This document shows, piece after piece, positions 3,760 through 47,716 of a DNA stretch of 47,716 nucleotides. The stretch covers positions 1 through 47,716 of the IMG/VR virus record IMGVR_UViG_3300016476_001127; one strand, 5' to 3'. Made by a program: the position numbers and the translations under genes. This DNA is from a virus. How positions within the stretch are numbered: position 1 is the first letter of the stretch; the number at the start of each line of letters is the position of its first letter. The notes under the pieces are model-generated. The model was not told the DNA's origin. It was given only the letters and a program-made list of their open reading frames with translations, and did no database searches.

Positions 3760-3975
3760 ATGAGGTTTACCATGGACCCCACCGTCCTCAAAACACCTGT
3801 CTTCATCGCCATCGGCCCCGGAAGTCCGACGCTCAGGGGTGTCTACCCCAACGGTGACGACGCCCGGAGACATGTCGAAACCCTCCCGAATGCGGAAGGC
3901 GTCACAATCTACATGTGCGCCCCCATCGCCAAGGCCTTCTACCACCCCTGCAAGCTCCAGTGGGAAGCACTGTGA
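3760..3975 (+). CDS. Hypothetical protein (71 aa)
   Basis: Internal ATG of track ORF 3703..3975, chosen because the upstream codons cover the stem-loop. No motif recognised. Confidence 0.55.
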   Translation: MRFTMDPTVLKTPVFIAIGPGSPTLRGVYPNGDDARRHVETLPNAEGVTIYMCAPIAKAFYHPCKLQWEAL

Positions 3976-4010
3976 TCGAGCACTGGCGCAACGTCCAGAG
4001 GTCCAATGAA

Positions 4011-4027
4011 GGGGTTCCTATCATCAT
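4011..4027 (+). promoter_or_regulatory. Copy of conserved motif GGGGTTCCTATCATCAT at the head of the ligase cassette
   Basis: Identical 17-mer to 1748..1764. Its last bases overlap ATG 4026. Confidence 0.5.
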
Positions 4028-4082
4028 GGCCATCCTCGTCATCCTGTCCATCTTCATCCTCCTCCTCATCATTCTCCGGTGA
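4026..4082 (+). CDS. Tiny hydrophobic ORF (18 aa, MAILVILSIFILLLIILR)
   Basis: ATG embedded in the motif; stop is 8 nt before ATG 4091. Could be a leader or membrane micropeptide, or not translated at all. Confidence 0.3.
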   Translation: MAILVILSIFILLLIILR

Positions 4083-4090
4083 CGTGTCTC

Positions 4091-4828
4091 ATGCGCTTCG
4101 TCGTCAAGCCCAGCAAGTTTCGTAAGACCCCTCTGCTGTTAAAGCGAGCGATCCCGGCGCGTAAGCTTGTCTCCTGGCCAGGCAGATACCAGCCTGCCTT
4201 GGACTACTCCCAGGACCTGTTCCTGGCCTTCCCCCAGCGTGGTCAGTATCCAAACCCGATCGCCAATGTGCCTGACTCGTATGACTTCATTGCGTCGTTC
4301 TACACGCTGAACAAGCATGCCCAGCGGGGTGTCTTGCTTCAGCACGGACTGAAGACCCCCGAAGCCTATGCAAGCACACATTTTATTGTAAGGCCTCTGC
4401 ATCACTTCGGGGGTCACGACTACCGCATTACCGACGACCCGAATGATTACGATCCCAACACCCAGTACATCTCGCCCGCGTTTGAAAAGTGGCGGGAGTA
4501 CCGCGTCCTCTTCGTAAAGGGCTCTCCCCTCGTCGTTCTCCGCAAGAAGCCAGGCCCCTCCGTGGGCCCCTTCGAGGCCTGGAATCACGCATCCGGCAGT
4601 TACTTCCAGACGGTCTTGGACCGTACCAACAGCCCGCTGATGCAGACGTCATTCCTCGCTGGCGCAGAACGCTTTTGTGTGTCGAGGGACACGCACCTTG
4701 TCGCCGTGGATGTCCTCGTCAACCGCAATTTCAACTACGCGGTCACCGAGTTCAATTTCGCCCCGGCACTGTCCATCCCTTCCAACATTGAGGTTATTTC
4801 ACATGCCCTTTCCCGTTCTGAATCGTGA
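4091..4828 (+). CDS. ATP-grasp-fold ligase-like protein (RimK-like minimal version)
   Basis: FIVRPLHHFGGHDY (P-loop-like strand), EYRVLFVKGSPLVVLRKK (typical E-x-R-v strand), WNHASGSYFQTV and LVAVDVLVNRNFNYAVTEFNFAPAL (D...E-x-N metal-binding segment). Start taken at ATG 4091 inside track ORF 4079. Confidence 0.6.
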   Translation: MRFVVKPSKFRKTPLLLKRAIPARKLVSWPGRYQPALDYSQDLFLAFPQRGQYPNPIANVPDSYDFIASFYTLNKHAQRGVLLQHGLKTPEAYASTHFIVRPLHHFGGHDYRITDDPNDYDPNTQYISPAFEKWREYRVLFVKGSPLVVLRKKPGPSVGPFEAWNHASGSYFQTVLDRTNSPLMQTSFLAGAERFCVSRDTHLVAVDVLVNRNFNYAVTEFNFAPALSIPSNIEVISHALSRSES

Positions 4829-6650
4829 CACTTTCGAACGCACCGGTGTCTTCCTCGAGCCCATCGAGTATTTCAACCCCAGCATCAACACCGAATACCA
4901 CTACCCCCTTACAAACCAGGCTGCCCGTGGGCTTATCACCATCGCTGACAGCATCAAGATCGCCTCTGGCCTCCTCTGCGACGAGTCCATCGACAGCCTG
5001 CTGCCCTACATCGCGAGGTATTTCTCGGGCAACTCCACCCTCGAGACCCTCCGCATGCTGCGGGAGGTCTACACCCGCCTCCCCGACGACAAGAAGTGGA
5101 TGCTGTTCTTCACCAAGGTCGGCTACGACCTTGAGGGTCCGGTCCATACCTACAACTACTCGGTGTCGTTCCGCTACCCGGAGCGCATTGCGTACAACGA
5201 GAGCATCCTGGGCCAGGCGAAACTCACATCCTACGTCCAGTGCACTGCCAACTCTCTCGGCGATATCGAGACAAACGAAAGGGGCAAGGCTGTTCTCGAC
5301 GAGCAGTTCCTGCCTCTCGTCGATCGCGCCTATGCCTATTTCGAGGCCCACCTCTCCACTCGCATTAGCTGGAGTGACCATTGTGCCCCGGGGATCATCG
5401 GAACGCTCTACAAATACGCCTCGGGTGGTTCTGTCTTCGTCCCCGAGGGGCATGCGCATGATTGGTCGGTTCCCTACGACTATTCCTCCGCACGAATCGT
5501 CCAGCAGTACATCGATGACGGCTACCGCGTCACGTTCAAGTTATCCAACACCGGATCGAGGCTCTCCTTCCTCGTCCGCCACATGGCAGGCGATCGCCGT
5601 GCCCTCGAGCGGATCATGAACTACTCCACCAACATCTTCGATCACCTCCCCTACACGATCAAGGGGCCGAAGGAACCGGCTGCCGTGCTCTATGGCGTCG
5701 AACTCGAAGCAAATGGCGACTACACCCCGAAGGAACTGATCACCGCCCAGAAGGACCTGTTCTTCATCATGAAGCAGGACGGCTCGGTCTGGGGCTCGAA
5801 GTCGCAGAACTACGAGCTCGTCACCGTCCCGGCCTCGCTCAAGGCACACAAGCGCCTGTGGGCCGAGTTCTTCGAGAAGGTCGACTACCAGAAGTTCGAC
5901 ACGACGAAGGACACCGGCAATGGCATGCATGTCCACATCGACCGCAAGGCGTTCAAGACCAGCCACCTGAACCGCTTCACCTGGTTTATCACCAACCCGG
6001 CCAACGAGGAGTTCATCCTCGCCATTTCGGAGCGCCCGACCAAGCGCAACCTCGAGGAGTGGGCAAGGATGCCCAACCACTTTGCCCATGCCTCGAAGCT
6101 CAAGGCGGCACGGCTTGCATCCCGGACGAATGACGGGCTCCGGGGTGCCGTCCACTTCAAGCGTGACAAGACCGTCGAGGTTCGCCTGTTCAAGGGTATC
6201 GTGTCCTACGCCACGGTGGTGAAGAACCTCGAATTCGTCGACTCCGCCTTCCACTACACCCAGCAGACTGCGCTGTCGCAACTCTCCCTGAAGCACTACC
6301 TCGCCTGGCTGCAGCGGACGCCGAAGAACAAGTACCAGATGCTCAAGGCCTTCCTGTCCGAGGTCAAGCTCCCGGATCTCGTCGCCAGTTCCGAGGTCGT
6401 CGAACTCATCTGGACCGAGAAGGCCGAGCACACCGTCGCCGAGAAGCTCAACAAGGCGCCGTTCAAGCTCACCAACGCCCACATCACCTACCTCAACAAG
6501 AAACGGAGGAAGCGCACCTTCATTCTCAAAGACGGCACGGTGAAGTGCATCGCCAGTTCAGGCGGGCTCCTCGCCAAGCTCGACAAGTCCGTGCAGCAGA
6601 AACAGACCCGTGGTGCTGCGACCTTCGCCATGACCAACTTCGCAGCCTGA
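4803..6650 (+). CDS. Glutamine-synthetase-like amidoligase (COOH-NH2 ligase, Amidoligase_2-type) with about 330-aa unassigned N-terminal region
   Basis: YGVELEANGDY...MKQDGSVWGSKSQNYELVTVPASL...GNGMHVHIDRKAF matches the G-x-E-x-E ... DGS ... E-l-V-S/T-P ... G-x-H-V-H pattern. GAGG then ATG 4803; 26-nt overlap with the upstream gene. Confidence 0.7.
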   Translation: MPFPVLNRDTFERTGVFLEPIEYFNPSINTEYHYPLTNQAARGLITIADSIKIASGLLCDESIDSLLPYIARYFSGNSTLETLRMLREVYTRLPDDKKWMLFFTKVGYDLEGPVHTYNYSVSFRYPERIAYNESILGQAKLTSYVQCTANSLGDIETNERGKAVLDEQFLPLVDRAYAYFEAHLSTRISWSDHCAPGIIGTLYKYASGGSVFVPEGHAHDWSVPYDYSSARIVQQYIDDGYRVTFKLSNTGSRLSFLVRHMAGDRRALERIMNYSTNIFDHLPYTIKGPKEPAAVLYGVELEANGDYTPKELITAQKDLFFIMKQDGSVWGSKSQNYELVTVPASLKAHKRLWAEFFEKVDYQKFDTTKDTGNGMHVHIDRKAFKTSHLNRFTWFITNPANEEFILAISERPTKRNLEEWARMPNHFAHASKLKAARLASRTNDGLRGAVHFKRDKTVEVRLFKGIVSYATVVKNLEFVDSAFHYTQQTALSQLSLKHYLAWLQRTPKNKYQMLKAFLSEVKLPDLVASSEVVELIWTEKAEHTVAEKLNKAPFKLTNAHITYLNKKRRKRTFILKDGTVKCIASSGGLLAKLDKSVQQKQTRGAATFAMTNFAA

Positions 6651-6660
6651 GGGGAACCCT

Positions 6661-7683
6661 ATGTGCGTCATCATCTACCGTGAACCCGGGGTTACCATCC
6701 CCTTCGACAAGCTGAAGTCTGCCTGCATCGTCAACGCTGACGGCATGGGCCTTGTCGCCATCGACCGTGGCAAGCTCGAGCTCCGGAAGTTCTTCCAGGA
6801 GAAGGGCAACGAGCCCGAGACGCTGGCGAAGTTCCTCGAGGATGCGAAGGACCTCCATGTCTACGCCCACCTTCGCTTCCGGACGAAGGGGGCGAAGGAC
6901 AAGGACAACGTCCATCCCTTCGGCGTCCTGAAGAAGAAGCTGCACGGCATGGACCTCCAGTTCATGCACAACGGCACGCTCACCGACTTCGGTACGACGA
7001 ATGACTGCGACTCGAAGCACTTCGCCAAATCCCTGCTGCGTCCGCTGTCCGAGACCTTCCTCAAGGCCAATGAGGGCAAGCCCTTCCTGCATGACCCGGT
7101 CTACGTCAAGCTGCTCGAGAAATATGCAGGCAAGGGCTCGGTCTTCCTGCTCGTCGACAATCTCGGCAACCACCAGATTGTGAACTACGACAATGGCAAA
7201 GCCTTCGATGGCTGGTGGGCCTCGAATGAGTACTCGTTCAACCGCACCCACCGGGAGTCCTACGACTACGGCTACGGCAGCCGTGGCTACTCGAAGGGCT
7301 ACCAGCAGTGGAAGGAGGATGGCTACTGGAAGCCGGACTCTCCCCAAGCGGAAGAAAAGAAGGTCGTCTCCCTCCCGCCCATCAAGTCTGGAGGAGATAC
7401 TCAGCCTCCTTTTGACGACGACGTCCCCTTCGAAACCGCGAAGAAGGAGGTAGCCAAGGCGGCGACGGTAAACCCTACTTTGCCGAAGCGCCCACGCTTC
7501 ATTGACGTCGCCGAGTTGTCTTGCCTCGCCGATGTCTGCCAGTTGTCCATGGACCAGATCAAGGACCTCGTCGATGACTACCCGGAGGAAGCCGCGCTCC
7601 TCATCCGGGACCTCATCAAGGAGGTCTACGACCTGGATGTCGAAGCCGACGACGAAATCGAGGAGGTCTACGTAGCAGCATGA
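6661..7683 (+). CDS. Class-II (Ntn) glutamine amidotransferase-like protein with acidic C-terminal extension
   Basis: Begins MCVIIY (nucleophile Cys2). AHLRFRTKGAKDKDNVHPF and FMHNGTL match the H-x-R-x-A-T ... N-x-H-P-F and H-N-G motifs. The last ~130 aa are acidic and unassigned. Confidence 0.8.
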   Translation: MCVIIYREPGVTIPFDKLKSACIVNADGMGLVAIDRGKLELRKFFQEKGNEPETLAKFLEDAKDLHVYAHLRFRTKGAKDKDNVHPFGVLKKKLHGMDLQFMHNGTLTDFGTTNDCDSKHFAKSLLRPLSETFLKANEGKPFLHDPVYVKLLEKYAGKGSVFLLVDNLGNHQIVNYDNGKAFDGWWASNEYSFNRTHRESYDYGYGSRGYSKGYQQWKEDGYWKPDSPQAEEKKVVSLPPIKSGGDTQPPFDDDVPFETAKKEVAKAATVNPTLPKRPRFIDVAELSCLADVCQLSMDQIKDLVDDYPEEAALLIRDLIKEVYDLDVEADDEIEEVYVAA

Positions 7684-8180
7684 GCGACTTCTCTGACTTC
7701 ATTGCCGACTGCCGTGCCGAGAATGGCTGGACGCCTGACGTCCCGCTGCTCGACACCCAGGATGACTGGTACGTCTTCGTCTACGGAAAGCGCCGGGGGA
7801 AATCCTCGGCGTATTTCACCCACGCCAACTCGGAGGCTGAGTTCGTCTCGATCGCCTGGACAAAATCCGACATATATAGTATACTAAATATCCAGGACGG
7901 TGATTCCGAACTCAAGCTCGCAACTCTGAACGGCACGGACCGCATCCTCGGTGAGGTGTGGAAGGTGCCGACCGAGAAGCTCATCGAACTCGACGGCGAT
8001 GAGCGCAACATCATGCTGACCGAACGCATCCGTGTCCCGGTCTGCATCGGTGCCAGGGGTGTCGTCTCGGCCTGGATCTACCTCGCCCATCGAAGTTATT
8101 TGCTCGAGGGTGGTCTCAAGATTTCCAAATACACCGGCTGCACATATTTCGGCAGCCAGAAGTTCCTCGAAATTCATTAA
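7680..8180 (+). CDS. Gamma-glutamyl cyclotransferase / AIG2-like protein
   Basis: WYVFVYGKRRGKSS (compare YGTLKRG), GEVWKVPTEKLIELDGDERN (G-E-v-y-x-v ... LD-x-x-E) and SAWIYL. ATGA overlap with the amidotransferase stop. Confidence 0.6.
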   Translation: MSDFSDFIADCRAENGWTPDVPLLDTQDDWYVFVYGKRRGKSSAYFTHANSEAEFVSIAWTKSDIYSILNIQDGDSELKLATLNGTDRILGEVWKVPTEKLIELDGDERNIMLTERIRVPVCIGARGVVSAWIYLAHRSYLLEGGLKISKYTGCTYFGSQKFLEIH

Positions 8181-8209: not shown

Positions 8210-8470
8210 ATGAGTCGTTGCGCTATCTGCGACTATTCCCAATCGGCTGATTCGCTCTACCACAACAGCCTGTCATTCTCGGCCTCACTCGAAAACAACC
8301 GCGTCGTCTACTCCCCGGATTTGAAGAAGGACGTCTGCATCTCCTGCCTCGAGCAGCATCTGCAGCAACAGAACTTCTGGGAATCTTTGGAGGACACAAG
8401 CGATGTTTATGAAGTCGAAGCTGAAGACGCTGCCGAATACTGCGGATGCACCGAAGTCGAAGCTGACTAG
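8210..8470 (+). CDS. Small Cys-rich (zinc-ribbon-like) acidic protein
   Basis: CAIC ... CISC pairs and an acidic C-terminus. Overlaps the primase start by about 65 nt. Confidence 0.55.
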   Translation: MSRCAICDYSQSADSLYHNSLSFSASLENNRVVYSPDLKKDVCISCLEQHLQQQNFWESLEDTSDVYEVEAEDAAEYCGCTEVEAD

Positions 8471-11346: not shown

Positions 11347-13289
11347 GCTACTGCATCCTCGACATCGAGACCAACGCCATCGACAACCCGGACAAGCTCT
11401 GGTGCATCGTGGTGAAGAACCTCGACAGCGGCGAGGTATCTACCTGGAGCTTTCCTTCGGGGGTTCCTGGGGAGTACCCGAGGCTTGTCGAGGGGTTCCT
11501 ATCATCTTGTAGCTCTGTCTCCTGCTGGGTTGGTCACAACGTCATTGCCTATGACCTTCCTCACCTTGTCCGGCTGATCCCTGGCTTCAGCTTCGATCAG
11601 TCCCGTGTCATCGACACTCTCGTCGTTGCCCGTCTTCTCAACTACGGCGTCGAGGGTGGCAACTCCCTCGAGGCCTGGGGGAACCGCCTAGGCTTACACA
11701 AAGCCGACTTCTCAGACTTCTCTGCCTACTCACAGCAGATGCTGGACTACTGCATCAACGACGTCCTTGTTACGGAGAAACTCTATGCCCTCCTCGAACC
11801 CTACGTATCCTCAAGCCAGTGGAGTCGTTCTCTACGACTCGAACACGATACAGCCTTCCTCTGCCACGACCTTCACACCAACGGATTTTCTTTTGACCTC
11901 GAACGAGCGGTTTCCCTGCATCATTCAATCACGAGCAGACTCGGAGCCTTGGAAGACGATCTCGCCCGAGATTTCCAGCCGCGACCTACCCTGGTACGCG
12001 AGGTACACCCTCGAGTCACCGCTTCAGGAACGCTTAGCCGCGTGGATTTCCGGTGGCTGGATAGTCCTGGCGACCTCACCCAGTTCAACGGAGGCCCTTT
12101 TTCCCGAATTGCCTGGGTACCCTTTAACCCCGGGAGTCCGAAGCAGTGCGTCGAGCGGCTCTGGGAGTGTGGATGGAAGCCCTTCGACAAGACCAAGGGA
12201 CACATCGCCGCCGAACGAGCATCCAATAGTCGACCTGTACGAGGAAGAGCAGGCGCTCAGACGGCTGGACGAGGACTTCGAGGACTACCTGAACCATCTG
12301 ATGTAAGAGGAAGCAGAGACCTTGAGCATTACCGCTACTACGGCTGGAAGGTCAACGAAGCCAACCTTGCTACACTACCCCGGGACGCACCAGAAGCAGC
12401 CCACAAGCTCGTCGAGTGGCTGATGCTGGACTCGAGGCGCTCCACCCTCGAGGAGTGGTTCGCCGTCTATAACCAGGGCACACAGCGTATCCATGGCCGC
12501 TTCAACCATATCGGGGCCTGGACCGGACGCATGTCCCACAACAGCCCCAACATGGCGAACATCCCAGGCCATGGCTCCGTCTACGGCGACGAGTTCCGCA
12601 GCTTGTGGCGGGCCGAGCCAGGAAAGTACCTCGTCGGTGTCGACGCTGACGGCATCCAACTCCGGGTGCTCGCCCATTACATGAACGACAAAGACTTCAT
12701 CGCAGCCCTCACCCAGGGCAGAAAGGAAGACGGTACTGATGCCCACACTCTCAACAAGATCGCCCTGGGCGATGCATGTCGAGATCGAGACACAGCGAAG
12801 ACTTTTATCTACGCATTTCTCCTTGGTGCGGGAGTCGCTAAGATCGCTGAAATCCTTGGCTGTTCTTCCGATGACGCCCGAGGAGCAGTTGACGCTTTCC
12901 TCAACTACTATCCAGGCCTTCGAGGACTTAAGGACCACCGACTCCCTGCTGATGCAGCTCGAGGCTATTTTATCGGACTCGACGGACGACTCGTCGCCTG
13001 TGACTCCGAGCACCTGATGCTGGCGGGCTACCTGCAGAACGGAGAAGCCGTCATCATGAAGACCGCGAACCTAATCTGGCGTGAGAACCTAAGAAAGGAG
13101 GGTATCGTCTTCAAGCAAGTCAACTTTGTTCATGACGAGTGGCAAGTTGAGGTTAATTCCTTGACTGATGCAACCAAAGCTGGTAATATAATGATATCGG
13201 CAATTGAAGAAGCTGGTCGCCAGCTTAACCTTAACTGTCCCCTCGCCGGTAACGCCAAATACGGCACAAGCTGGCTGGACACACACTAG
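11343..13289 (+). CDS. Family-A DNA polymerase with 3'-5' exonuclease domain
   Basis: Exo motifs ILDIETNA, HNVIAYDLPHL and YCINDVLVTEKLY. Pol motif A DADGIQLRVLAHY, motif B RDTAKTFIYAFLLGAG, motif C FVHDEWQVE. Ends ...SWLDTH with the conserved C-terminal His. TTG start with a TTGA overlap. See the finding on 12226..12330. Confidence 0.9.
   Translation: MSYCILDIETNAIDNPDKLWCIVVKNLDSGEVSTWSFPSGVPGEYPRLVEGFLSSCSSVSCWVGHNVIAYDLPHLVRLIPGFSFDQSRVIDTLVVARLLNYGVEGGNSLEAWGNRLGLHKADFSDFSAYSQQMLDYCINDVLVTEKLYALLEPYVSSSQWSRSLRLEHDTAFLCHDLHTNGFSFDLERAVSLHHSITSRLGALEDDLARDFQPRPTLVREVHPRVTASGTLSRVDFRWLDSPGDLTQFNGGPFSRIAWVPFNPGSPKQCVERLWECGWKPFDKTKGHIAAERASNSRPVRGRAGAQTAGRGLRGLPEPSDVRGSRDLEHYRYYGWKVNEANLATLPRDAPEAAHKLVEWLMLDSRRSTLEEWFAVYNQGTQRIHGRFNHIGAWTGRMSHNSPNMANIPGHGSVYGDEFRSLWRAEPGKYLVGVDADGIQLRVLAHYMNDKDFIAALTQGRKEDGTDAHTLNKIALGDACRDRDTAKTFIYAFLLGAGVAKIAEILGCSSDDARGAVDAFLNYYPGLRGLKDHRLPADAARGYFIGLDGRLVACDSEHLMLAGYLQNGEAVIMKTANLIWRENLRKEGIVFKQVNFVHDEWQVEVNSLTDATKAGNIMISAIEEAGRQLNLNCPLAGNAKYGTSWLDTH
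11492..11507 (+). promoter_or_regulatory. Copy of conserved motif GGGGTTCCTATCATCT inside the polymerase gene
   Basis: Matches 15 of the first 16 positions of the copies at 1748 and 4011. A partial GGGGTTCCT also lies at about 11460..11468. Confidence 0.4.
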
Positions 13290-15347: not shown

Positions 15348-15522
15348 TCCACCGCAGGGCTGGATGTACGGCTTCCCAAAGGTCTTCGACTTTATTCCCA
15401 GTCACCCCAACCTCCCTGGTGAAGAATACGAGCAGGAGTTCCGGGAGTGGCTTGTCGACAACGGCTACCCCCGAAATCTCTGCACTGAATCCAACCTCCG
15501 TCATTGCAGGTTTATCGGTTGA
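15325..15522 (+). CDS. Hypothetical protein (65 aa)
   Basis: ATG ORF overlapping the neighbouring genes at both ends. No motif recognised. Confidence 0.5.
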   Translation: MAMSPLIDPPQGWMYGFPKVFDFIPSHPNLPGEEYEQEFREWLVDNGYPRNLCTESNLRHCRFIG

Positions 15523-16280
15523 CCACACATCTCGTCATCCCCGACTCCCACGCACATCCCCAACATCACAACAAGAGGGCCGAGTGGCTTGGACACCTCA
15601 TTAATGATCTTAAGCCTGATGTCGTCATTCATATTGGCGACTCCGCTGATATGCCTTCATTGTGTTCGTACGATAAGGGCAAGAAGTCGTTCCAGGGGCG
15701 AACCTACCGAGCCGATGTAGACGCCCACCTCGATTGGCAGGACCGGATGTGGAGCATCGTGAAAGGCGCCAAGAAGCGTCTTCCCCGCAGGGTGTTCTGC
15801 ATCGGCAACCACGAAGAACGCATCAACAAGGCAATCAACATCCAGCCTGAGCTCGAGGGAGCGATCGGCATGGAAGATCTGGAGCTCGATTATTTCTATG
15901 ACGAAGTCGTACCCTACCAAGGCGGAAGCCCAGGAAGCATTGAACTCGATGGCATTCACTACGCTCACTACCATGTTAGTGGCCTTATGGGCAGGCCTGT
16001 GGGCGGCGAACACCCTGCTTACAGCCTGGTCTCCAAGCGATTTGTATCTTGTACCGCTGGTCACAGTCATCTCGCTGACCTTTGCATTCGCACTGACACT
16101 GCCGGTCGCAAGATCATGGGGTGTCTTGCGGGCGTATATCAGGACTACGAATCCGACTGGGCAGGAGAAGTCAACCGCCTTTGGTGGCGAGGCGTTGTCT
16201 TCAAACGCAATGTAGAGGCTGGCTCCTACGACCCCGAGTTCATCTCACTTGACCGTATCCGGAGGGAATATGGAGCGTAA
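15519..16280 (+). CDS. Calcineurin-like metallophosphoesterase
   Basis: IPDSHAH (DxH), HIGDSADM (GDxxD), IGNHEERI (GNHE), HYAHYH and TAGHSHLAD (GHxH). TTG start with a TTGA overlap. Confidence 0.8.
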   Translation: MTTHLVIPDSHAHPQHHNKRAEWLGHLINDLKPDVVIHIGDSADMPSLCSYDKGKKSFQGRTYRADVDAHLDWQDRMWSIVKGAKKRLPRRVFCIGNHEERINKAINIQPELEGAIGMEDLELDYFYDEVVPYQGGSPGSIELDGIHYAHYHVSGLMGRPVGGEHPAYSLVSKRFVSCTAGHSHLADLCIRTDTAGRKIMGCLAGVYQDYESDWAGEVNRLWWRGVVFKRNVEAGSYDPEFISLDRIRREYGA

Positions 16281-17142: not shown

Positions 17143-18839
17143 ACACTGGTCCGTCCCTTCCGATCTCGATCGAACTCGACGAAATGAAATACCGTCAGCC
17201 CGGTGAGTCCTTCCGCGAGAAGTGCTCCCGCATCGCTGATTCACTCAAGGACAGCGATGAACACTACCACGCCTTCCGTGATGCTCTCCTCGATATGCGC
17301 TTCCTTCCGGCAGGCCGTGTCCAGGCTGCCATGGGTGCGGCCCGACAAGTTACCCCCTACAACTGCTTCGTCGCCCCCACCATTCCTGACACAATGGCCG
17401 GCATCATGGCCACCGCAGGAGTCGCTGCGGAAACAATGCGGCTTGGAGGAGGTATTGGCTATGACTTCTCCACTATCCGTCCCAAGGGAGACCTCATCAG
17501 TAAAACAGGTTCGCCTGCATCCGGTCCCGTGTCCTTCATGCGGATCTTCGATGCCGTATGCGGGACTGTCGCCTCTGCTGGGCATCGTCGCGGTGCACAG
17601 ATGGGAGTGCTGCGGGTGGACCATCCTGACATTGAAGAATTCATCCGAGCCAAGCAGAACACCATCAACCTGACGAACTTCAATATCTCCATCGCCGTGA
17701 CTGACAAGTTCATGGAGGCGGTGAAGACGAACTCAGGCTTCGACCTCGTTTGGGGTGGCAAGAAGTACCGCACCATCAACGCAAGGAACCTGTGGAACGA
17801 GATCATGCGCTCCACCTGGGACTGGGCCGAGCCTGGTGTGCTGTTCATCGACCGCATCAACGAGATGAACAATCTCCACTACATTGAGAACATAGCGGCA
17901 ACAAACCCCTGTGCCGAGCAGCCCCTGCCGCCCAACGGGGCCTGTCTCCTCGGCTCCTTCAACCTCGTCCGCTACGTCCAGCTCGATGAGGCCACCAACG
18001 CCTTCTACTTCGATTGGGAGCAGTTCTTTAAGGACATCCCCGCCGTGGTCAGGGCGATGGACAACATCGTCGACCGGGCCCTCTACCCGCTCGAGGAGCA
18101 GTACCAGGAGGCGATTAGCAAGCGCCGCATGGGGCTGGGTGTCACCGGCGTGGCGAATGCCCTCGAGGCCCTGGGCTACCCCTATGGCTCCGAGGACTTC
18201 CTGGTCTACCTGAACTCGCTGCTCCGGGACTTCACCAACGCCGTCTACAAGGCTTCCTCCGAGCTCGCCCGGGAGAAGGGTCCCTTCCCGCTCTTCGTCG
18301 CCAAGGAGTATCTCGCAGGCAAGTTCATCCAGCAGCTCGACAAGGACGTCCGTGACCACATCGAACTCTTCGGTATTCGAAACAGCCACCTTACCTCCAT
18401 CGCACCAACTGGAACTATTTCCCTGGTGGCAGACAATATCTCTTCGGGGATCGAGCCTGTCTTCAGCTATGGATTCGATCGTACTATCCAGACATATGAA
18501 GGTCCCCGCGTCGAGCGTGTTGACGATTATGGGCTACGGGTCTTCGGAGTTCGTGGAAAGACAGCGGACCAGTGCAGCGTGGACGACCATCTTGCAGTCC
18601 TGCTCGTCGCCGCGAAGTGGATGGATTCTGCTGTATCGAAAACCTGCAATGTCGGAGACGCCGTAAGTTTCGAGGAGTTCAAGGACATCTACTGGAAGGC
18701 CTGGGAAGGCGGGGCCAAGGGCTGCACCACCTTCCGCGCATCCGGCAAGCGCATGGGCATCCTCAACGCTGCACCCCAGGAAGGAGAAGGAGCCGCCTGC
18801 TACTACGATCCCGAGACCGGCAAGAAGACCTGTGAATAA
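17139..18839 (+). CDS. nrdJ: Ribonucleotide reductase, probably class II (cobalamin-dependent)
   Basis: NPCAEQPLPPNGACLLGSFNL catalytic loop and C-terminal Cys pair ACYYDPETGKKTCE. No NrdB-like small subunit anywhere in the genome. AAGGAG then TTG 17139 with a TTGA overlap. Confidence 0.8.
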   Translation: MNTGPSLPISIELDEMKYRQPGESFREKCSRIADSLKDSDEHYHAFRDALLDMRFLPAGRVQAAMGAARQVTPYNCFVAPTIPDTMAGIMATAGVAAETMRLGGGIGYDFSTIRPKGDLISKTGSPASGPVSFMRIFDAVCGTVASAGHRRGAQMGVLRVDHPDIEEFIRAKQNTINLTNFNISIAVTDKFMEAVKTNSGFDLVWGGKKYRTINARNLWNEIMRSTWDWAEPGVLFIDRINEMNNLHYIENIAATNPCAEQPLPPNGACLLGSFNLVRYVQLDEATNAFYFDWEQFFKDIPAVVRAMDNIVDRALYPLEEQYQEAISKRRMGLGVTGVANALEALGYPYGSEDFLVYLNSLLRDFTNAVYKASSELAREKGPFPLFVAKEYLAGKFIQQLDKDVRDHIELFGIRNSHLTSIAPTGTISLVADNISSGIEPVFSYGFDRTIQTYEGPRVERVDDYGLRVFGVRGKTADQCSVDDHLAVLLVAAKWMDSAVSKTCNVGDAVSFEEFKDIYWKAWEGGAKGCTTFRASGKRMGILNAAPQEGEGAACYYDPETGKKTCE

Positions 18840-18855
18840 CGAAGGAAGACATTTC

Positions 18856-19596
18856 ATGAAGCAATTTCTGATCGCCATCGGCCTGCTCATTTCAGCAGCC
18901 CTCCCGGCCTCGGCCTGGGACATCGACAAGATGAACGAGCAGATCGAGAAGACGAACGTCATCGTCTCGGAGATCTGCTCTGGCACCATTATTGACATCG
19001 AGCAACGTCTCGTTCTCACCGCCCATCACTGCATCACCGAGAACCTCCGGGAGGTCGAGAAGAAGGAAGTCGACCCGATCACCGGAGAGATCAAGAGCCG
19101 CATGGTGGTCGAGAAGACCCCGATGTATGTCGAGACCTGGCATCGCCAGGACTACGACGTCGTCTCCCTCGATCGTCACTCGGCCATTATTAAAGGGTAT
19201 GACGCGAAGGCTGACCTCGCCATCCTCCAGGTCGTCGACGAGTCCTGGAAGCCTGCCATGGAAGCCCCGCTGGCAGGCAAGGGATACAAGTTCAAGCGTG
19301 GCCTTCCGGTCTATGCTGTCGGCAATCCCGGCATCGCCTACGACAACTCCCTGACGGCTGGCATCATCTCCGCTCCTGAGCGGGCCATCGACTTCGGCAG
19401 TGGGGCCATCCCGATGTTCCAGCACTCGGCCTCGATCATCGGTGGCTCGTCGGGTGGTGCGATCTACAACGACGCAGGCGAGATCATCGGCACGGTGTCA
19501 GCCGGTATCCGGGGTGCGAATATCGGCTTCGCCGTCCCGGTGTCGAAGACGAAGGAGCTCCTGAAGCGCCTCGGCCTCGAGGAGGTCCTCAATTGA
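18856..19596 (+). CDS. Secreted trypsin-like (S1/HtrA-type) serine protease
   Basis: Signal-peptide-like MKQFLIAIGLLISAALPASA. Catalytic triad contexts LTAHHC, DLAILQV and GGSSGGAIY. Confidence 0.8.
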   Translation: MKQFLIAIGLLISAALPASAWDIDKMNEQIEKTNVIVSEICSGTIIDIEQRLVLTAHHCITENLREVEKKEVDPITGEIKSRMVVEKTPMYVETWHRQDYDVVSLDRHSAIIKGYDAKADLAILQVVDESWKPAMEAPLAGKGYKFKRGLPVYAVGNPGIAYDNSLTAGIISAPERAIDFGSGAIPMFQHSASIIGGSSGGAIYNDAGEIIGTVSAGIRGANIGFAVPVSKTKELLKRLGLEEVLN

Positions 19597-19889
19597 GCTT
19601 CAAGCCGGAGGATGTCCGGATTCCCTACGACTACTACTACTACCCTTCCCCCGAGGAGATGAACGCAACGAAAAAGGAGCCCGCAACGGCTCCTTCTGCA
19701 TTGAACCCCAACCACTACGCCCGCTGGAAGATCGAGCCCCTGACCTTCTGCATGGAGAACAATCTCCCGTTCTGGATGGGCAACATCATTAAGTACATCA
19801 TGCGCTACGACCAGAAGGACGGTCTCCAGGACCTCTACAAGGCGCGTGTCTATCTCAACCGCATCATCGAAGAACTGGAGGGAAAATGA
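19593..19889 (+). CDS. DUF3310-like protein
   Basis: NPNHYARWKIEPLTFCMENNLPFWMGNIIKYIMRYDQKDGLQDLYKARVYL matches the H-Y ... gN-v-i-K-Y-i-x-R ... DL-x-KA-x-x-Y pattern. TTGA overlap. Confidence 0.65.
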   Translation: MSFKPEDVRIPYDYYYYPSPEEMNATKKEPATAPSALNPNHYARWKIEPLTFCMENNLPFWMGNIIKYIMRYDQKDGLQDLYKARVYLNRIIEELEGK

Positions 19890-20254
19890 TCCGACTCATC
19901 GACGAAACCGGACAGCTCGAGGAACTCACCTTCGCCGAGTACCAGGACATCGCCCTGGACTTCGCCATCTACTCCGAACAGAACGCCGTCATCTACCCCG
20001 CACTCAAGCTCTCGGGCGAGGCCGGTGAGGTGTCCGAAAAGGTCGGCAAGCGTCTTCGGGACGCTGGTGGTGACTTCGAGGACCTCGAGTGGCGGGAGTC
20101 GATGAAGAAGGAGCTCGGGGATGTCCTCTGGTACATCTCTGCGTTGGCTGACGATCTTGGCTACACGCTAGAGGAAGTGGCCGATACGAATCTGTCGAAA
20201 CTTTCTAGCCGTGTGGCACGGGGCGTGCTTCAAGGCAGCGGGGATGACCGTTGA
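19886..20254 (+). CDS. mazG: MazG-like nucleoside triphosphate pyrophosphohydrolase
   Basis: LSGEAGEVSEKVGK and ELGDVLWYISALADDLG are the all-alpha NTP-PPase E-x-x-E and E-x-x-D motifs. Confidence 0.8.
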   Translation: MIRLIDETGQLEELTFAEYQDIALDFAIYSEQNAVIYPALKLSGEAGEVSEKVGKRLRDAGGDFEDLEWRESMKKELGDVLWYISALADDLGYTLEEVADTNLSKLSSRVARGVLQGSGDDR

Positions 20255-47466: not shown

Positions 47467-47716
47467 CAACGGCAACCGATATAAAAATCTACACGGGCCA
47501 GAGACGACACACTAAAGGGCGACCCTCGGACTGCTGAAACACGCAGGGGTACAAGACGGCCCGATACTGACATCAACGTGTGTCTAAGAAAGAAGAGATT
47601 TAGCTAGAACTATTCTAGCTTCATATAAGAATAATCGAATATAATCAGATACATACAAGAAAGCCACCGGCTGGAACCAGTGGCTTTCCTATCATCAACA
47701 GCCATCACAAGGATCA
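47467..47716. repeat. Right copy of 250-bp direct terminal repeat
   Basis: Identical to 1..250 and ends exactly at the window end. Confidence 0.9.

Follow-up and report, generated by a model that had tools for sequence, protein, structure and literature searches.

A four-gene phage operon for two amide-bond ligases and two enzymes cleaving gamma-glutamyl-type amides

Which reactions are encoded by four consecutive genes just upstream of the primase-helicase gene of an environmental phage, and what might these reactions serve? The window, i.e. the whole stretch of 47,716 nucleotides that was analyzed (IMG/VR record IMGVR_UViG_3300016476_001127), represents a phage genome of podovirus size (47.7 kb) and carries a terminal repeat of 250 bp. 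The DNA polymerase encoded on it is approximately 43% identical to those of the roseophages CRP-4 and CRP-5. A preliminary description, made by eye, had proposed four consecutive and translationally coupled genes for an ATP-grasp ligase, an amidoligase, an amidotransferase and a cyclotransferase-like protein. The four genes, here called g1 to g4, were all found on the plus strand between positions 4091 and 8180 with the proposed junctions, and independent gene calls on public copies of the contig yielded the identical four genes. The features of the locus are as follows:

3972..4082, plus strand: small hydrophobic ORF at the head of the cassette, 36 aa from GTG 3972, with an 18-aa version from ATG 4026
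4011..4027, plus strand: repeated motif GGGGTTCCTATCATCAT, possibly a promoter or other regulatory element, located within the small hydrophobic ORF
4091..4828, plus strand: g1, compact ATP-grasp carboxylate-amine ligase of 245 aa (AF2, Foldseek, invariant residues)
4803 (g2 start) to 4828 (g1 end), plus strand: g1/g2 junction, 26-nt overlap
4803..6650, plus strand: g2, GS-like COOH-NH2 ligase of the Amidoligase_2 family, 615 aa (Pfam matches of relatives, AF2, Foldseek, residues)
6650 (g2 end) to 6661 (g3 start), plus strand: g2/g3 junction, 10-nt gap
6661..7683, plus strand: g3, class-II (N-terminal nucleophile, Ntn) glutamine-amidotransferase-like (GAT) amidohydrolase, 340 aa (Pfam GATase_4, residues)
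7680..7683, plus strand: g3/g4 junction, ATGA overlap
7680..8180, plus strand: g4, gamma-glutamylamine cyclotransferase-like (GGACT/AIG2) protein, 166 aa (Pfam GGACT, family profile)
8210..8470, plus strand: small CxxC...CxxC zinc-ribbon protein (86 aa, acidic tail), encoded between cassette and primase-helicase

The start of g1, previously placed at GTG 4079, is likely to be ATG 4091, since both the homologues and the gene callers begin at MRF. The AF2 model of g1 (pLDDT 84.9) was most similar to LysX/ArgX (5k2m, 8.8e-9), DcsG, PsnB, Ddl/DdlB and RimK in a Foldseek search of the PDB. Alignment of 39 family members with a mean identity of 31% showed that K75, Q78, R101, E136, R138, K152, D207, E220 and N222 are invariant, as is the ATP-grasp catalytic template ExR, Asp and ExN, and the by-eye signatures were recovered as REYRV, D207 and E220-x-N222. 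Weak matches of family members were to ATP-grasp_3, R2K_3, RimK, Dala_Dala_lig_C and TTL. The family comprises 334 clusters at 50% identity, and remote relatives with 27% identity still have an amidoligase and a GAT gene within 5 kb. With LysX, RimK and PsnB as its nearest folds, g1 belongs to the ExR "peptide-bond" assemblage; according to the R2K paper, the ExR motif marks peptide-linkage ligases.

The g2 protein consists of an uncharacterised N-terminal domain of approximately 290 aa, a catalytic core at approximately 295–490 and a helical C-terminal domain (approximately 115 aa) with a conserved basic LNKxxRKRTF patch. The N-terminal region had been estimated at 330 aa; the first core motif is however G298-E300-L301-E302. 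The Pfam Amidoligase_2 model scored 17.2 bits for g2 itself, which is under the 22-bit cut-off, and was matched by 29 of 44 relatives, with 2e-6 as the best value. The AF2 model (pLDDT 91.4) retrieved glutamine synthetases and YbdK (1r8g/1tt4) at the top of the Foldseek matches to the PDB, with Dop and GmaS further down, and phage "amidoligase enzyme" proteins from BFVD. Residues E300, E302, D326, E338, H376, H378, E459 and R461 are invariant in the family alignment, as are the motif residues ExE, E, HxH and ExR, and the signatures GVELE, DGS, ELVTVP and GMHVH were all confirmed.

In g3, a catalytic domain of approximately 200 aa and a linker that varies precede a helical segment of approximately 60 aa that is conserved at the C-terminus. 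The best Pfam family was GATase_4 (4e-7, 29.7 bits with a cut-off of 23), and M1, C2, R72, T75, G77, H103, N104, G105 and D117 are invariant among 35 sequences, in agreement with the signatures MC, RFRTKG, HPF and HNG. The family profile matched PA1307/YafJ-like 1te5, GFAT1 and PurF in the PDB, the best of these being the stand-alone YafJ-like protein. The g3 protein retains the residues that hold the free alpha-amino and alpha-carboxylate groups of glutamine or a gamma-glutamyl moiety, and its conserved residues fit a glutaminase and a gamma-glutamyl-amide hydrolase without discriminating between them.

The g4 protein has a family-specific N-terminal extension of approximately 30 aa and matched Pfam GGACT (1e-6, 29.8 bits with a cut-off of 22.8). 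Its family profile matched mouse GGACT (1vkb, 2.6e-15) and human GGACT (3jub, 3.6e-13) with the Glu of GE(V)Y aligned, as compared to an E-value of only 0.4 for the GGCT C7orf24. By this profile comparison, g4 is far nearer to the gamma-glutamylamine cyclotransferases than to GGCT. E92 is nearly invariant, the signatures FVYG, GEVW and LD were recovered, and a YGTLKxG motif is present in most relatives but degenerate in the g4 of the window (YGKRRG). Thus, the four enzyme assignments of the preliminary description held in both profile and structure searches, the signatures noted by eye were confirmed and coincide with invariant alignment columns, and the catalytic residues are conserved in the homologues. 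We conclude that g1 to g4 indeed code for a pair of ATP-dependent amide-bond ligases and a pair of enzymes breaking gamma-glutamyl-type amide bonds, organized as an operon in which all four enzymes are, by their residues, catalytically intact.

What could such a combination accomplish? Characterised ligases with a GS-like fold (GS, GCS/YbdK, PuuA, GmaS, PafA) activate the gamma-carboxylate of glutamate, whereas BtrG and GGACT strip gamma-glutamyl groups off amines, and EgtC, a member of GATase_4, hydrolyses a gamma-glutamyl amide. Following this family chemistry, g2 would use ATP to phosphorylate a glutamate-type gamma-carboxylate and couple it to an amine, yielding a gamma-glutamyl-amide, and g1 would link the same compound, a small molecule or a peptide, through a second amide bond. 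The gamma-glutamyl amides would be cleaved in two ways, by g3 through hydrolysis to Glu and by g4 through cyclisation to 5-oxoproline with release of the amine. The overall logic would be that of butirosin BtrJ/BtrG, ergothioneine EgtA/EgtC, Puu and the gamma-glutamyl cycle of glutathione. We tentatively favour, at somewhat below an even chance, a gamma-glutamyl-amide pathway of this kind that acts on a cytoplasmic amine or peptide during early infection and host takeover, with a carrier, protecting-group or write-and-erase role. The gamma-glutamyl-type conjugate chemistry that had been suggested at the outset would still be the most parsimonious reading, and none of the analyses made on the cassette identified a substrate, product or target.

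Two further observations bear on the gamma-glutamyl-amide pathway. The tight gene overlaps and the family-specific extra domains (the N- and C-terminal domains of the amidoligase and the C-terminal helices of the GAT) suggest that the four proteins act as a complex. Moreover, GAT-GGACT fusion proteins occur in two other phages, C75C1 and ctfjg026, which ties the Ntn domain to gamma-glutamyl-amide cleavage rather than to simple ammonia supply. The substrate class is also favoured by the nearness of the g4 profile to gamma-glutamylamine cyclotransferases and by the GATase_4 and YafJ-like matches of g3. Against the pathway, making and destroying one and the same bond calls for a step in between or for some regulatory reason, neither of which is evident in the operon; nor do the conserved residues of g3 tell a gamma-glutamyl-amide hydrolase from a glutaminase. 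Also counting against it are the degenerate YGTL motif and the sub-threshold Pfam score of the window's own GGACT and amidoligase, respectively, and the finding that EgtC is not among the PDB matches of the g3 family profile.

The distribution of the genes points to a smaller unit. Of the 92 sequences scanned, 88 contain both an amidoligase and a GAT gene, in most cases next to each other or no more than approximately 1 kb apart and usually with the ligase first, and 61 loci contain only these two genes. The deeper conserved unit is thus the amidoligase-GAT pair and not the quartet, the ATP-grasp and GGACT genes being lineage-specific additions, and the cassette is a member of a widespread phage amidoligase-GAT module. 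The two-gene loci leave no room for an intermediate enzyme and fit an ammonia-donor role of the GAT at least as well. The pair could represent a two-component glutamine-dependent amidotransferase, in which the GAT hydrolyses glutamine, the ammonia is passed to the amidoligase and/or the ATP-grasp ligase, and an ATP-activated carboxylate is amidated, so that a changed envelope excludes superinfecting phages. Examples of targets would be D-iso-Glu or meso-DAP in peptidoglycan precursors, as for MurT/GatD or AsnB/LtsA. In addition to the near-universal core, this reading is favoured by the presence in g3 of every residue of a working class-II glutaminase (Cys2, Arg72, Asn104-Gly105, Asp117) and by the conserved C-terminal helical segment, which could be a docking module. 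It leaves the GAT-GGACT fusions and the GGACT gene without a role, however, and the cassette contains no envelope-related gene or signal peptide. To our knowledge, the characterised ammonia-channelling class-II GAT domains are fused in cis to a synthase, those GATase_4 proteins that stand alone are either hydrolases or functionally uncharacterised, and no characterised GS-fold ligase draws ammonia from a GAT partner, all of which speak against such an amidotransferase. The idea of a cell-wall change recurs in the literature, where later papers attribute the proposal of a cell-envelope and superinfection-exclusion function for phiEco32 to Iyer et al. 2009. On balance, we consider an amidotransferase function unlikely.

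The complete quartet is also co-conserved. The four-gene order was observed in more than 20 phage contigs, down to approximately 32% identity and always just upstream of the primase-helicase, and the overlaps are likewise retained in L005–L008 and L012–L028. Contrary to the initial impression that the cassette lies apart from the replication genes, it adjoins them, with the zinc-ribbon ORF at 8210 and the primase-helicase ORF next at 8403, and this adjacency is conserved. No terminator-like site was found on the coding strand between g4 and the replication genes, and the cassette is probably co-transcribed with them. This location, together with the basic LNKxxRKRTF patch of g2 and the report by Lee et al. 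that amidoligase and amidotransferase genes are co-associated with some thymidine-hypermodification clusters, would suit a modification of DNA or nucleotides against restriction, in which a modified base would receive an amino acid or amine from the ligases, or be amidated by them, and the hydrolases would process the adduct. Yet scans with Pfam or PHROGs detected no dUMP/dCMP hydroxymethylase, 5-HMUDK, aGPT-Pplase, TET/JBP, DpdA/tgt or glycosyltransferase among the window ORFs that they covered, in line with the preliminary description as regards the last two, and the two-gene core is found in very different phages without such modification genes. Hypermodification is thus very improbable.

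The zinc-ribbon gene, the product of which often has an acidic tail, is present in the four-gene loci; it immediately follows GGACT in most of them and lies further downstream in L025 and L028. The acidic-tailed protein of the window, by analogy with the zinc-ribbon carrier LysW of LysX, might speculatively be the target of a tagging system, in which a host or phage protein receives glutamate or a short peptide from one or both ligases, much as with RimK, LysX, TTL or PafA, and maturation or trimming of the tag falls to the Ntn hydrolase and GGACT. Consistent with tagging, the best structural neighbours of g1 are RimK, LysX/ArgX complexed with LysW, and two ATP-grasp ligases of RiPP synthesis, PsnB and MdnC; its family members weakly match the RimK, R2K and TTL models; and the Pup enzyme Dop is among the fold neighbours of g2. 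The R2K paper predicts modification of host proteins by phage ATP-grasp ligases, and the title of a reference cited for GGACT names the gamma-glutamyl-epsilon-lysine isopeptide as its natural substrate. However, the tail and the C-terminal residue of the zinc-ribbon protein vary among relatives, as opposed to the C-terminal Glu of LysW, and in Rhizobium phage RHph_N3_19 the gene is located directly before the primase/helicase, apart from the cassette genes. The similarity to the ATP-grasp fold is moreover generic, with Ddl and DcsG scoring equally well, and Arg72 and Asp117 of g3 imply a substrate with free alpha-amino and alpha-carboxylate groups rather than a residue embedded in a protein. 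We regard tagging as rather improbable; the zinc-ribbon protein is more likely a member of the replication module, and only putatively linked to the cassette.

At the head of the cassette, the motif GGGGTTCCTATCATCAT has exact copies at 1748 and 4011 and a 1-mismatch copy at 11492, as compared to a chance expectation of 0.1 matches; a 3-mismatch copy at 216 recurs in the terminal repeat at 47682. The cassette had been described as having its own copy of this motif and an 18-aa hydrophobic micro-ORF. The motif copy stands, whereas the micro-ORF probably represents the end of a longer membrane peptide of 36 aa (MIEHWRNVQRSNEGVPIIMAILVILSIFILLLIILR), the GTG start of which overlaps the stop of an upstream 67-aa ORF. 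A similar 36-aa peptide (EFWR...GLPIIIIIAI) is encoded directly 5' of the ATP-grasp gene in L005, and L012 has a small hydrophobic ORF in the corresponding position; such an ORF is missing from most other relatives. The small ORF may be functionally part of the cassette.

The genes could, finally, be auxiliary metabolic genes, a phage-borne gamma-glutamyl cycle that boosts nitrogen, glutamate or glutathione metabolism of the host. This was proposed for Phage-ZRK32 in an eLife paper, which annotates the same four activities as auxiliary metabolic genes. The set of folds mirrors the cycle (GCS-like ligase, glutathione-synthetase-like ATP-grasp, Ntn hydrolase, cyclotransferase), and the phage encodes a ribonucleotide reductase that needs a thiol reductant. 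Still, all four proteins are distant from cellular housekeeping enzymes, with no NCBIfam equivalog match and, for the single proteins, no PDB sequence matches, and the cyclotransferase is of the amine-specific GGACT type rather than GGCT or ChaC-type. Among 185,579 representative genomes, the long amidoligase is all but missing, which indicates phage-specific families rather than captured host genes. Of all the readings considered, a metabolic supplement is the least probable.

How does the favoured gamma-glutamyl-amide pathway relate to known systems? In the synthesis of the butirosin side chain, the ATP-grasp gamma-glutamyl ligase BtrJ is paired with the GGCT-fold cyclotransferase BtrG, and the gamma-glutamyl group is a transient protecting group on an amine that is removed as 5-oxoproline. 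The cassette likewise pairs an ATP-grasp ligase with an AIG2/GGCT-fold enzyme, but the acyl carrier protein, PLP and flavin enzymes and acyltransferase used in butirosin chemistry are not in the window. The likeness is one of analogous logic, not membership, the homology shown being limited to the fold. Pairs of a GS-like ligase that forms a gamma-glutamyl-amide and a Cys-nucleophile amidohydrolase that later removes the glutamyl group are EgtA/EgtC (ergothioneine), PuuA/PuuD (putrescine) and GmaS with NMG synthase. EgtC belongs to GATase_4, the family matched by g3, and, taken together, the folds encoded in the cassette are those of the glutathione gamma-glutamyl cycle. Unlike in these systems, the intermediate enzymes are absent here and the cyclotransferase is amine-specific, and the PDB-profile and NCBIfam results above give no close sequence relation. 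The LysW/LysX/ArgX carrier system resembles the locus in that LysX/ArgX bound to LysW is the best structural match of g1, at Foldseek scores nearly equal to those for Ddl, DcsG and PsnB, and in the small acidic-tailed zinc-ribbon protein encoded beside the cassette. The phage protein lacks the conserved C-terminal Glu or any conserved tail residue, and the downstream enzymes LysZ, LysY, LysJ and LysK are missing.

The cassette type itself is already known, with identical or similar enzyme sets annotated in cultured phages and discussed in papers. Rhizobium phage RHph_N3_19 encodes an amidoligase, an ATP-grasp protein, a GATase and the GGACT-like EVB99_044 (E 3e-39); Xanthomonas phage DES1 a GGCT, a GAT-like gene, an ATP-grasp protein and a GATase; Pseudomonas phage GP100 a gamma-glutamyl hydrolase, an amidoligase and a Ddl-like ATP-grasp protein just upstream of the primase/helicase; and Proteus phage J3S two COOH-NH2 ligases, a GATase and a RimK-like ATP-grasp protein. 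All four activities are described for Poriferisphaera phage ZRK32 in the eLife paper. These five phages show no DNA-level match to the window, small ORFs lie between their cassette genes, the order of which differs, and their amidoligases are of a short form of approximately 300–350 aa.

Later papers credit Iyer, Abhiman, Burroughs and Aravind 2009 (Mol Biosyst) with the phage amidoligase/GAT-II/ATP-grasp systems, with or without AIG2. Typical carriers are phiEco32 and mycobacteriophage Marvin, and further annotated examples come from LUZ24-like, PA11-like, OM43 and Poseidoniales viruses; with our HMMs, Marvin gp105/gp106 is an amidoligase-GAT pair. The statement in the preliminary description that such phage neighbourhoods had been noted before, with no known substrate, agrees with the literature, in which we found no experimentally defined substrate. 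Shared with the window are Amidoligase_2 and a class-II GAT, accompanied by ATP-grasp and GGCT/AIG2 in some, and an early or middle genomic position. The nearest structural relatives of g2 are phage "amidoligase enzyme" proteins, among them those from Pseudomonas phage tf and Mycobacterium phage Tesla, while identity of the cassette proteins to any cultured-phage member is at most approximately 23–40% and partial. The window is distinguished from these systems by its four genes forming one overlapping operon of fixed order, by the long form of its amidoligase with the additional N- and C-terminal domains, and by the family-specific C-terminal helical segment of its GAT.

The four genes of the cassette follow one another on the plus strand of the window. 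They are referred to below as g1 to g4:

4091-4828, plus strand: g1, ATP-grasp gene, 245 aa
4803-6650, plus strand: g2, long amidoligase, 615 aa
6661-7683, plus strand: g3, class-II Ntn glutamine amidotransferase (GAT)-like protein, 340 aa
7680-8180, plus strand: g4, gamma-glutamylamine cyclotransferase (GGACT, AIG2 family)-like protein, 166 aa

Both the window ORFs and the public gene calls reproduce the junctions read in a preliminary description of this DNA, namely a 26-nt overlap between g1 and g2, a 10-nt gap before g3 and an ATGA overlap of g3 with g4. A GTG start for g1 is possible at 4079; homologues and public gene calls have an MRF start. The window carries an exact 250-bp terminal direct repeat (1-250 is identical to 47467-47716) and thus represents a complete genome, phage-sized at 47,716 bases. 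Either the genome ends in direct terminal repeats, or a circular assembly overlaps at its two ends. In ENA the contig has a length of 47,607 bp.

The plus arm encodes a tyrosine integrase, a primase-helicase, a family-A DNA polymerase, nucleases, RNR, a trypsin-like protease and MazG, and the minus strand contains a large ORF block including a terminase-like gene. The polymerase, found by tblastn, shares about 43% identity with its counterparts in roseophages CRP-4 and CRP-5. The trypsin-like serine protease (18832-19596, plus strand; Trypsin_2, 1.5e-18), which is odd cargo for such a phage type, is located downstream of the replication genes, as are the MazG pyrophosphohydrolase (19886-20254, plus strand) and a calcineurin-like metallophosphatase (15504-16280, plus strand). 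No tRNA genes were found in the window. Searches with the cassette DNA by blastn against 50,697 phage records gave zero matches, so that no cultured phage was found at the DNA level. The g1 and g4 proteins gave zero matches by tblastn, and single-sequence PDB searches with all four proteins returned nothing meaningful. The NCBIfam scan found no family, and the PADLOC scan gave no defence-system match.

For g1, an AlphaFold2 model was obtained from the alignment (pLDDT 84.9, pTM 0.84). The model had 388 PDB matches at E<=1e-3, and the best 50 of the 388 were all of the ATP-grasp fold. The leading matches were LysX/ArgX with LysW (8.8e-9), DcsG, PsnB, DdlB and RimK, with synapsin also among the best 50. 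Based on the model and these matches, we conclude that the two-domain ATP-grasp catalytic fold, a RAGNYA domain followed by a protein-kinase-like domain, is present in g1. Its family comprises 39 close metagenomic homologues, and a profile search extended it to 334 clusters at 50% identity. Residues K75, Q78, R101, E136, R138, G144, K152, D207, E220, N222 and P225 are invariant in the 39 members, which share a mean identity of 31%. The catalytic template of the ATP-grasp enzymes consists of a basic residue in the linker, a basic residue closing RAGNYA strand 2, an Asp in strand 4 of the kinase domain and a terminal ExN (PMC4431377). We matched residues to strands by eye against the secondary structure of the model, and found the template in K75, R101 (VVRP, followed by the HFGG loop), D207 and E220-x-N222. 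The ExR motif, the mark of the peptide-linkage assemblage of ATP-grasp enzymes (PMC4431377), is invariant in the family as E136-Y-R138 (REYRV).

The single g1 sequence matched nothing in Pfam, PHROG, NCBIfam or the PDB. Weak Pfam matches were obtained with its relatives (ATP-grasp_3, R2K_3, RimK, R2K_2, Dala_Dala_lig_C and TTL; E 4e-4 to 0.04, 3-5 of the 39 members), and the family profile weakly matched PurP, AMdnB, TTLL6 and cyanophycin synthetase. The R2K clade has lost the linker lysine and the ssxGbGl loop, and has a second Lys/Arg right behind the strand-2 lysine. With its invariant upstream K75 and Gly-rich RPLxHFGG loop g1 looks classical, although the weak matches include R2K_3 and R2K_2. 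Since the linker lysine and the Gly-rich loop are retained, we do not place g1 in the R2K clade. The ATP-grasp genes of four compared loci appear to be split (L016, 2409-3221; L018, 2887-3753; L019, 5434-6366; L020, 381-1268). The split is only apparent, as each contains an in-frame insertion of variable size, about 25-60 aa, past profile position 57 rather than stops or recoding. The ATP-grasp gene of L026 (2874-3643) does contain a true frameshift, which could be an assembly error or mark a pseudogene. Seven ATP-grasp relatives are longer, with C-terminal extensions that matched nothing in Pfam.

The AlphaFold2 model of g2 (pLDDT 91.4) was searched with Foldseek. Glutamine synthetases (GS) and YbdK/GCS2 were on top in the PDB (E 4e-5 to 1e-3), followed by the Pup enzyme Dop and the gamma-glutamylmethylamide synthetase GmaS at about 3e-3 to 4e-3. 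Together, the model and the matches show that g2 has a GS-like catalytic fold. Foldseek against BFVD retrieved many phage proteins named 'amidoligase enzyme', including those of Pseudomonas phage tf and Mycobacterium phage Tesla. The score of g2 itself against the amidoligase family PF12224 was 17.2 bits, under the 22-bit cut-off, and covered only profile positions 147-242, the C-terminal half; 29 of the 44 family members matched at E<=0.01, the best at 2e-6. Residues E300, E302, D326, E338, H376, H378, E459 and R461 are invariant in the 44 sequences (mean identity 29%), and the ExE / E / HxH / ExR pattern that they form is the one that would be expected of a working GS-type site. By analogy with GS, these acidic, His and Arg residues on the core strands would bind metal and ATP.

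The region N-terminal to the core of g2, put at 330 aa in the preliminary description, is shorter, about 290 aa, with the catalytic core beginning near residue 295. It is confidently folded in the model. No PDB match to this region came from the whole-protein profile, hhalign comparisons with the amidoligase core, the C-terminal domain and the ATP-grasp and GAT families gave probabilities of 0.2 or less, and Foldseek matches to the full model were dominated by the GS-like core. At the other end there is a helical domain of about 115 aa (6350-6650, residues about 515-615) with a conserved basic patch, LNKxxRKRTF, which hints at a polyanionic partner, for example nucleic acid or an acidic protein tail. 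The patch reads LNKKRRKRTF in the window.

In several relatives, an extra short amidoligase-like match, absent from the window, was observed in the ORF immediately 5' of the ATP-grasp gene. An ORF of this kind would give a five-gene cassette with two amidoligase paralogues:

L007, 4210-4344: short amidoligase-like match
L016, 1985-2311: short amidoligase-like match
L017, 4980-5489: short amidoligase-like match
L018, 2484-2867: short amidoligase-like match
L019, 4994-5410: short amidoligase-like match
L026, 2341-2709: short amidoligase-like match

The third protein, g3, matched Pfam GATase_4 with 29.7 bits (cut-off 23; E 4e-7), an annotation that is precomputed in most of its homologues. Invariant residues in 35 sequences are M1, C2, R72, T75, G77, H103, N104, G105 and D117. 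In the profile, the HLRxxTxG and HNG motifs line up with the stand-alone YafJ-like protein PA1307 (1te5) and human GFAT1, and PurF was also matched. By comparison with GlmS and PurF, we take C2 to be the nucleophile, N104-G105 to be the oxyanion hole and the Arg and Asp residues to bind the alpha-carboxylate and alpha-amino groups of the substrate. Behind the catalytic domain of about 200 aa, a linker that varies leads to roughly 60 aa of conserved helical sequence, a segment restricted to this lineage; no synthase domain is fused to the protein.

Protein g4 scored 29.8 bits against Pfam GGACT (PF06094; cut-off 22.8). The profile of its family (23 relatives) matched mouse GGACT (1vkb, 2.6e-15) and human GGACT (3jub, 3.6e-13), and gamma-glutamyl cyclotransferase proper (C7orf24) only at E 0.4. 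E92 (LGEVWKV) is nearly invariant and aligned with the Glu of the GE(V)Y motif in human and mouse GGACT, the catalytic Glu82 of the human enzyme. The N-terminal YGTL(K/R)xG motif, which serves in substrate binding, is degenerate in the window (FVYGKRRGKSS) and in the related locus L005 (FIYAGRKGK), and most other relatives keep FVYGTLKxG. The contacts made by the YGTL motif in known structures are main-chain contacts, and activity may therefore survive the degeneration. Thus, the enzyme identities proposed in the preliminary description are borne out by fold matches and an invariant catalytic template for the ATP-grasp ligase, a GS-like fold with invariant site residues for the Amidoligase_2-type ligase, a GATase_4 score above cut-off with an invariant Cys2 for the class-II amidotransferase-like protein, and a GGACT score above cut-off for the cyclotransferase, which is closer to GGACT than to GGCT.

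Gene calls on contigs with amidoligase homologues at 31-42% identity displayed the identical four genes in identical order. The g1 and g2 genes overlapped by 20-32 nt in three of these four contigs, and the cassette was located immediately 5' of the primase-helicase. For a wider survey, 80 viral contigs anchored on the amidoligase were fetched, and six-frame ORFs were compared with HMMs of the four families; 92 sequences were scanned. The full quartet was present in 23 of these, nearly all with a long amidoligase at >=32% identity. The amidoligase-GAT pair was present in 88, mostly as direct neighbours or no more than about 1 kb apart. GGACT was additionally found in 26 of the 92. The co-occurrence in related phages that the preliminary description proposed to check is thus seen as a fixed gene order in relatives, and on these counts the pair is the ancient core. 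The ATP-grasp and GGACT genes are additions in this lineage, and independently elsewhere too. Remote ATP-grasp relatives (27% identity) have an amidoligase and a GAT within 5 kb, and the Ddl-like gene of GP100 and the RimK-like gene of J3S match the g1 family HMM. When loci were anchored on ATP-grasp or GGACT instead, alignment A1 yielded no more than three, and the sequences of alignments A2 and A5 diverged too far for a pattern scan. The Pfam description of Amidoligase_2 names as conserved neighbours a GAT-like Ntn thiol hydrolase, an AIG2-family cyclotransferase or both, and such neighbours were found in the survey.

No fusions among the cassette domains were found in 429 retrieved homologues. 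GAT-GGACT fusion proteins were identified in two unrelated phages, with a class-II GAT segment (Cys at the N-terminus) followed by the GGACT domain:

L010, 5001-5897: GAT-GGACT fusion of Phage C75C1 (CDS0020), annotated 'gamma-glutamyl cyclotransferase'
L094, 5001-6218: GAT-GGACT fusion of Podoviridae sp. ctfjg026 (UOF82491), annotated 'gamma-glutamyl cyclotransferase'

These fusions would tie the GAT and GGACT activities together. Characterised GS-fold ligases (GS, GCS/YbdK, PuuA, GmaS, PafA) activate the gamma-carboxylate of glutamate. GGACT and BtrG free amines from gamma-glutamyl-amines with formation of 5-oxoproline, and Ntn GAT-like proteins that stand alone, EgtC among them, act as hydrolases of gamma-glutamyl amides. 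Judging from the chemistry of these relatives, three of the four cassette enzymes converge on gamma-glutamyl-amide bonds. A second amide bond would be made by the ATP-grasp enzyme, as a member of the peptide-ligase assemblage. Given these enzyme identities, the most economical model would be a pathway in which gamma-glutamyl serves as carrier or protecting group, or a cycle that writes and erases it, on some amine or peptide; we hold it tentatively, with confidence somewhat short of even. The cautious functional inference of the preliminary description, a gamma-glutamyl-type peptide conjugate that is made or edited, is reasonable. The near-universal pairing of amidoligase and GAT would be better accounted for by the main rival, a two-component glutamine-dependent amidation of a carboxylate, but this leaves the GGACT and the GAT-GGACT fusions unexplained, and we regard it as rather unlikely.

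The long amidoligase has dozens of metagenomic relatives. In 185,579 representative prokaryotic genomes it is all but missing, with a single 1.7-kb MAG fragment as the only find. The cassette enzymes are phage families and not recent host captures. A role as auxiliary metabolic genes in host metabolism is considered highly improbable. Since the coding strand has no terminator-like site after g4, the cassette would be expressed with the replication genes.

A motif of the form (GTC[T/G]A)GGGGTTCCTATCATC(AT) has three near-exact copies on the plus strand (1748-1764, 4011-4027 and 11492-11508; chance expectation 0.1). A weaker copy is located at 216-232, just past a hairpin near the left end, with a duplicate at 47682-47698. 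Two copies are intergenic, one is within the small ORF preceding the cassette and one within the DNA polymerase ORF. The motif does not match sigma-70 spacing. It could mark units of early transcription, as either a promoter or a site for a regulator. Three small ORFs flank the cassette:

3772-3975, plus strand: 67-aa ORF upstream of the membrane peptide
3972-4082, plus strand: probable 36-aa single-pass membrane peptide, with a GTG start that overlaps the upstream stop codon (GTGA)
8210-8470, plus strand: four-Cys zinc-ribbon protein (RCxICDY...CxxC), overlapping the start of the primase-helicase

The locus L005 has a homologue of the 36-aa peptide, and L012 a small hydrophobic ORF in the same position. 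In most four-gene loci (L005, 9409-9678; L006, 5206-5463; L009, 7809-8063; and others) the zinc-ribbon gene separates GGACT from primase-helicase, and in L025 and L028 it is found farther downstream. The protein matched no family in Pfam or PHROG and frequently has an acidic tail.

Tagging of a protein or peptide is unlikely in our estimate. Another reading of low probability is a self-contained phage 'gamma-glutamylation' system, in which gamma-glutamyl (isopeptide-type) marks would be put on, and taken off, the amines of a macromolecule or carrier. Lysines of host or phage proteins would be candidate targets, as would the acidic-tailed zinc-ribbon as a LysW-like carrier. If true, this would be a new kind of chemistry in viruses, directed at proteins after translation or at a carrier protein and serving host takeover or counter-defence, and not a small-molecule pathway. 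The LysW-like role of the zinc-ribbon was demoted to a low probability, as the tail and the terminal residue are not conserved and the gene tracks the primase-helicase in RHph_N3_19, where it is located immediately 5' of primase/helicase.

Amidoligase and amidotransferase genes have been reported beside some thymidine-hypermodification clusters (Lee et al.), which would speak for an action of the cassette on DNA. Against this, Pfam and PHROG scans of the window ORFs submitted to them gave an integrase, primase-helicase, PD-(D/E)XK nuclease, endonuclease VII, metallophosphatase, RNR, trypsin-like protease and MazG, but no dUMP/dCMP hydroxymethylase, 5-HMUDK, aGPT-Pplase, TET/JBP or DpdA/tgt; several small ORFs obtained no assignment. 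The absence of hypermodification genes noted earlier thus holds for the scanned ORFs, and we consider DNA hypermodification very unlikely.

Amidoligase-GAT modules are among the most widespread function-orphan enzyme sets of tailed phages. Later papers cite Iyer et al. 2009 for the phage amidoligase and GATase genes, and credit it with the idea that in phiEco32 these genes alter the cell wall and so block superinfection. According to published reports, the OM43 phages MEP401 and MEP402 have both genes, as do over 30 metagenomic genomes related to them. Such reports also exist for Pseudomonas phages of the LUZ24-like and PA11-like groups and for Poseidoniales viruses. These papers, together with the cultured phages, agree with the earlier statement that such phage neighbourhoods had been noticed. 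The short amidoligase form is present in 130 cultured-phage records. In Mycobacterium phage Marvin (L093), gp105 (3833-5194) matches the amidoligase HMM and gp106 (5274-6173) is the GAT; the public label 'glutamine amidotransferase domain protein' on gp105 appears to be one gene off in Marvin-like phages. A substrate or product is defined in none of the papers that we found on phage amidoligase-GAT modules, nor did we find it stated there that the pair, rather than the quartet, is the conserved core, or that GAT-GGACT fusion proteins exist in other phages.

Solving the cassette would reveal whether phages remodel metabolites, envelope precursors, proteins or DNA by gamma-glutamyl/amide chemistry. 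As a compact, complete and apparently intact quartet, with high-confidence models predicted for both ligases, it should be a good template for expression and metabolomics, and RHph_N3_19, GP100 and MEP401 are cultured relatives for genetics. The cassette extends a recognised pattern and is of value as a clean starting point for experiments. Sets that are the same or similar occur in the Rhizobium phage RHph_N3_19, the Xanthomonas phage DES1, the Pseudomonas phage GP100 and the Proteus phage J3S, but with small ORFs interspersed. The cassette is not a new kind of system but a compact, well-conserved member of a phage module that has already been recognised computationally.
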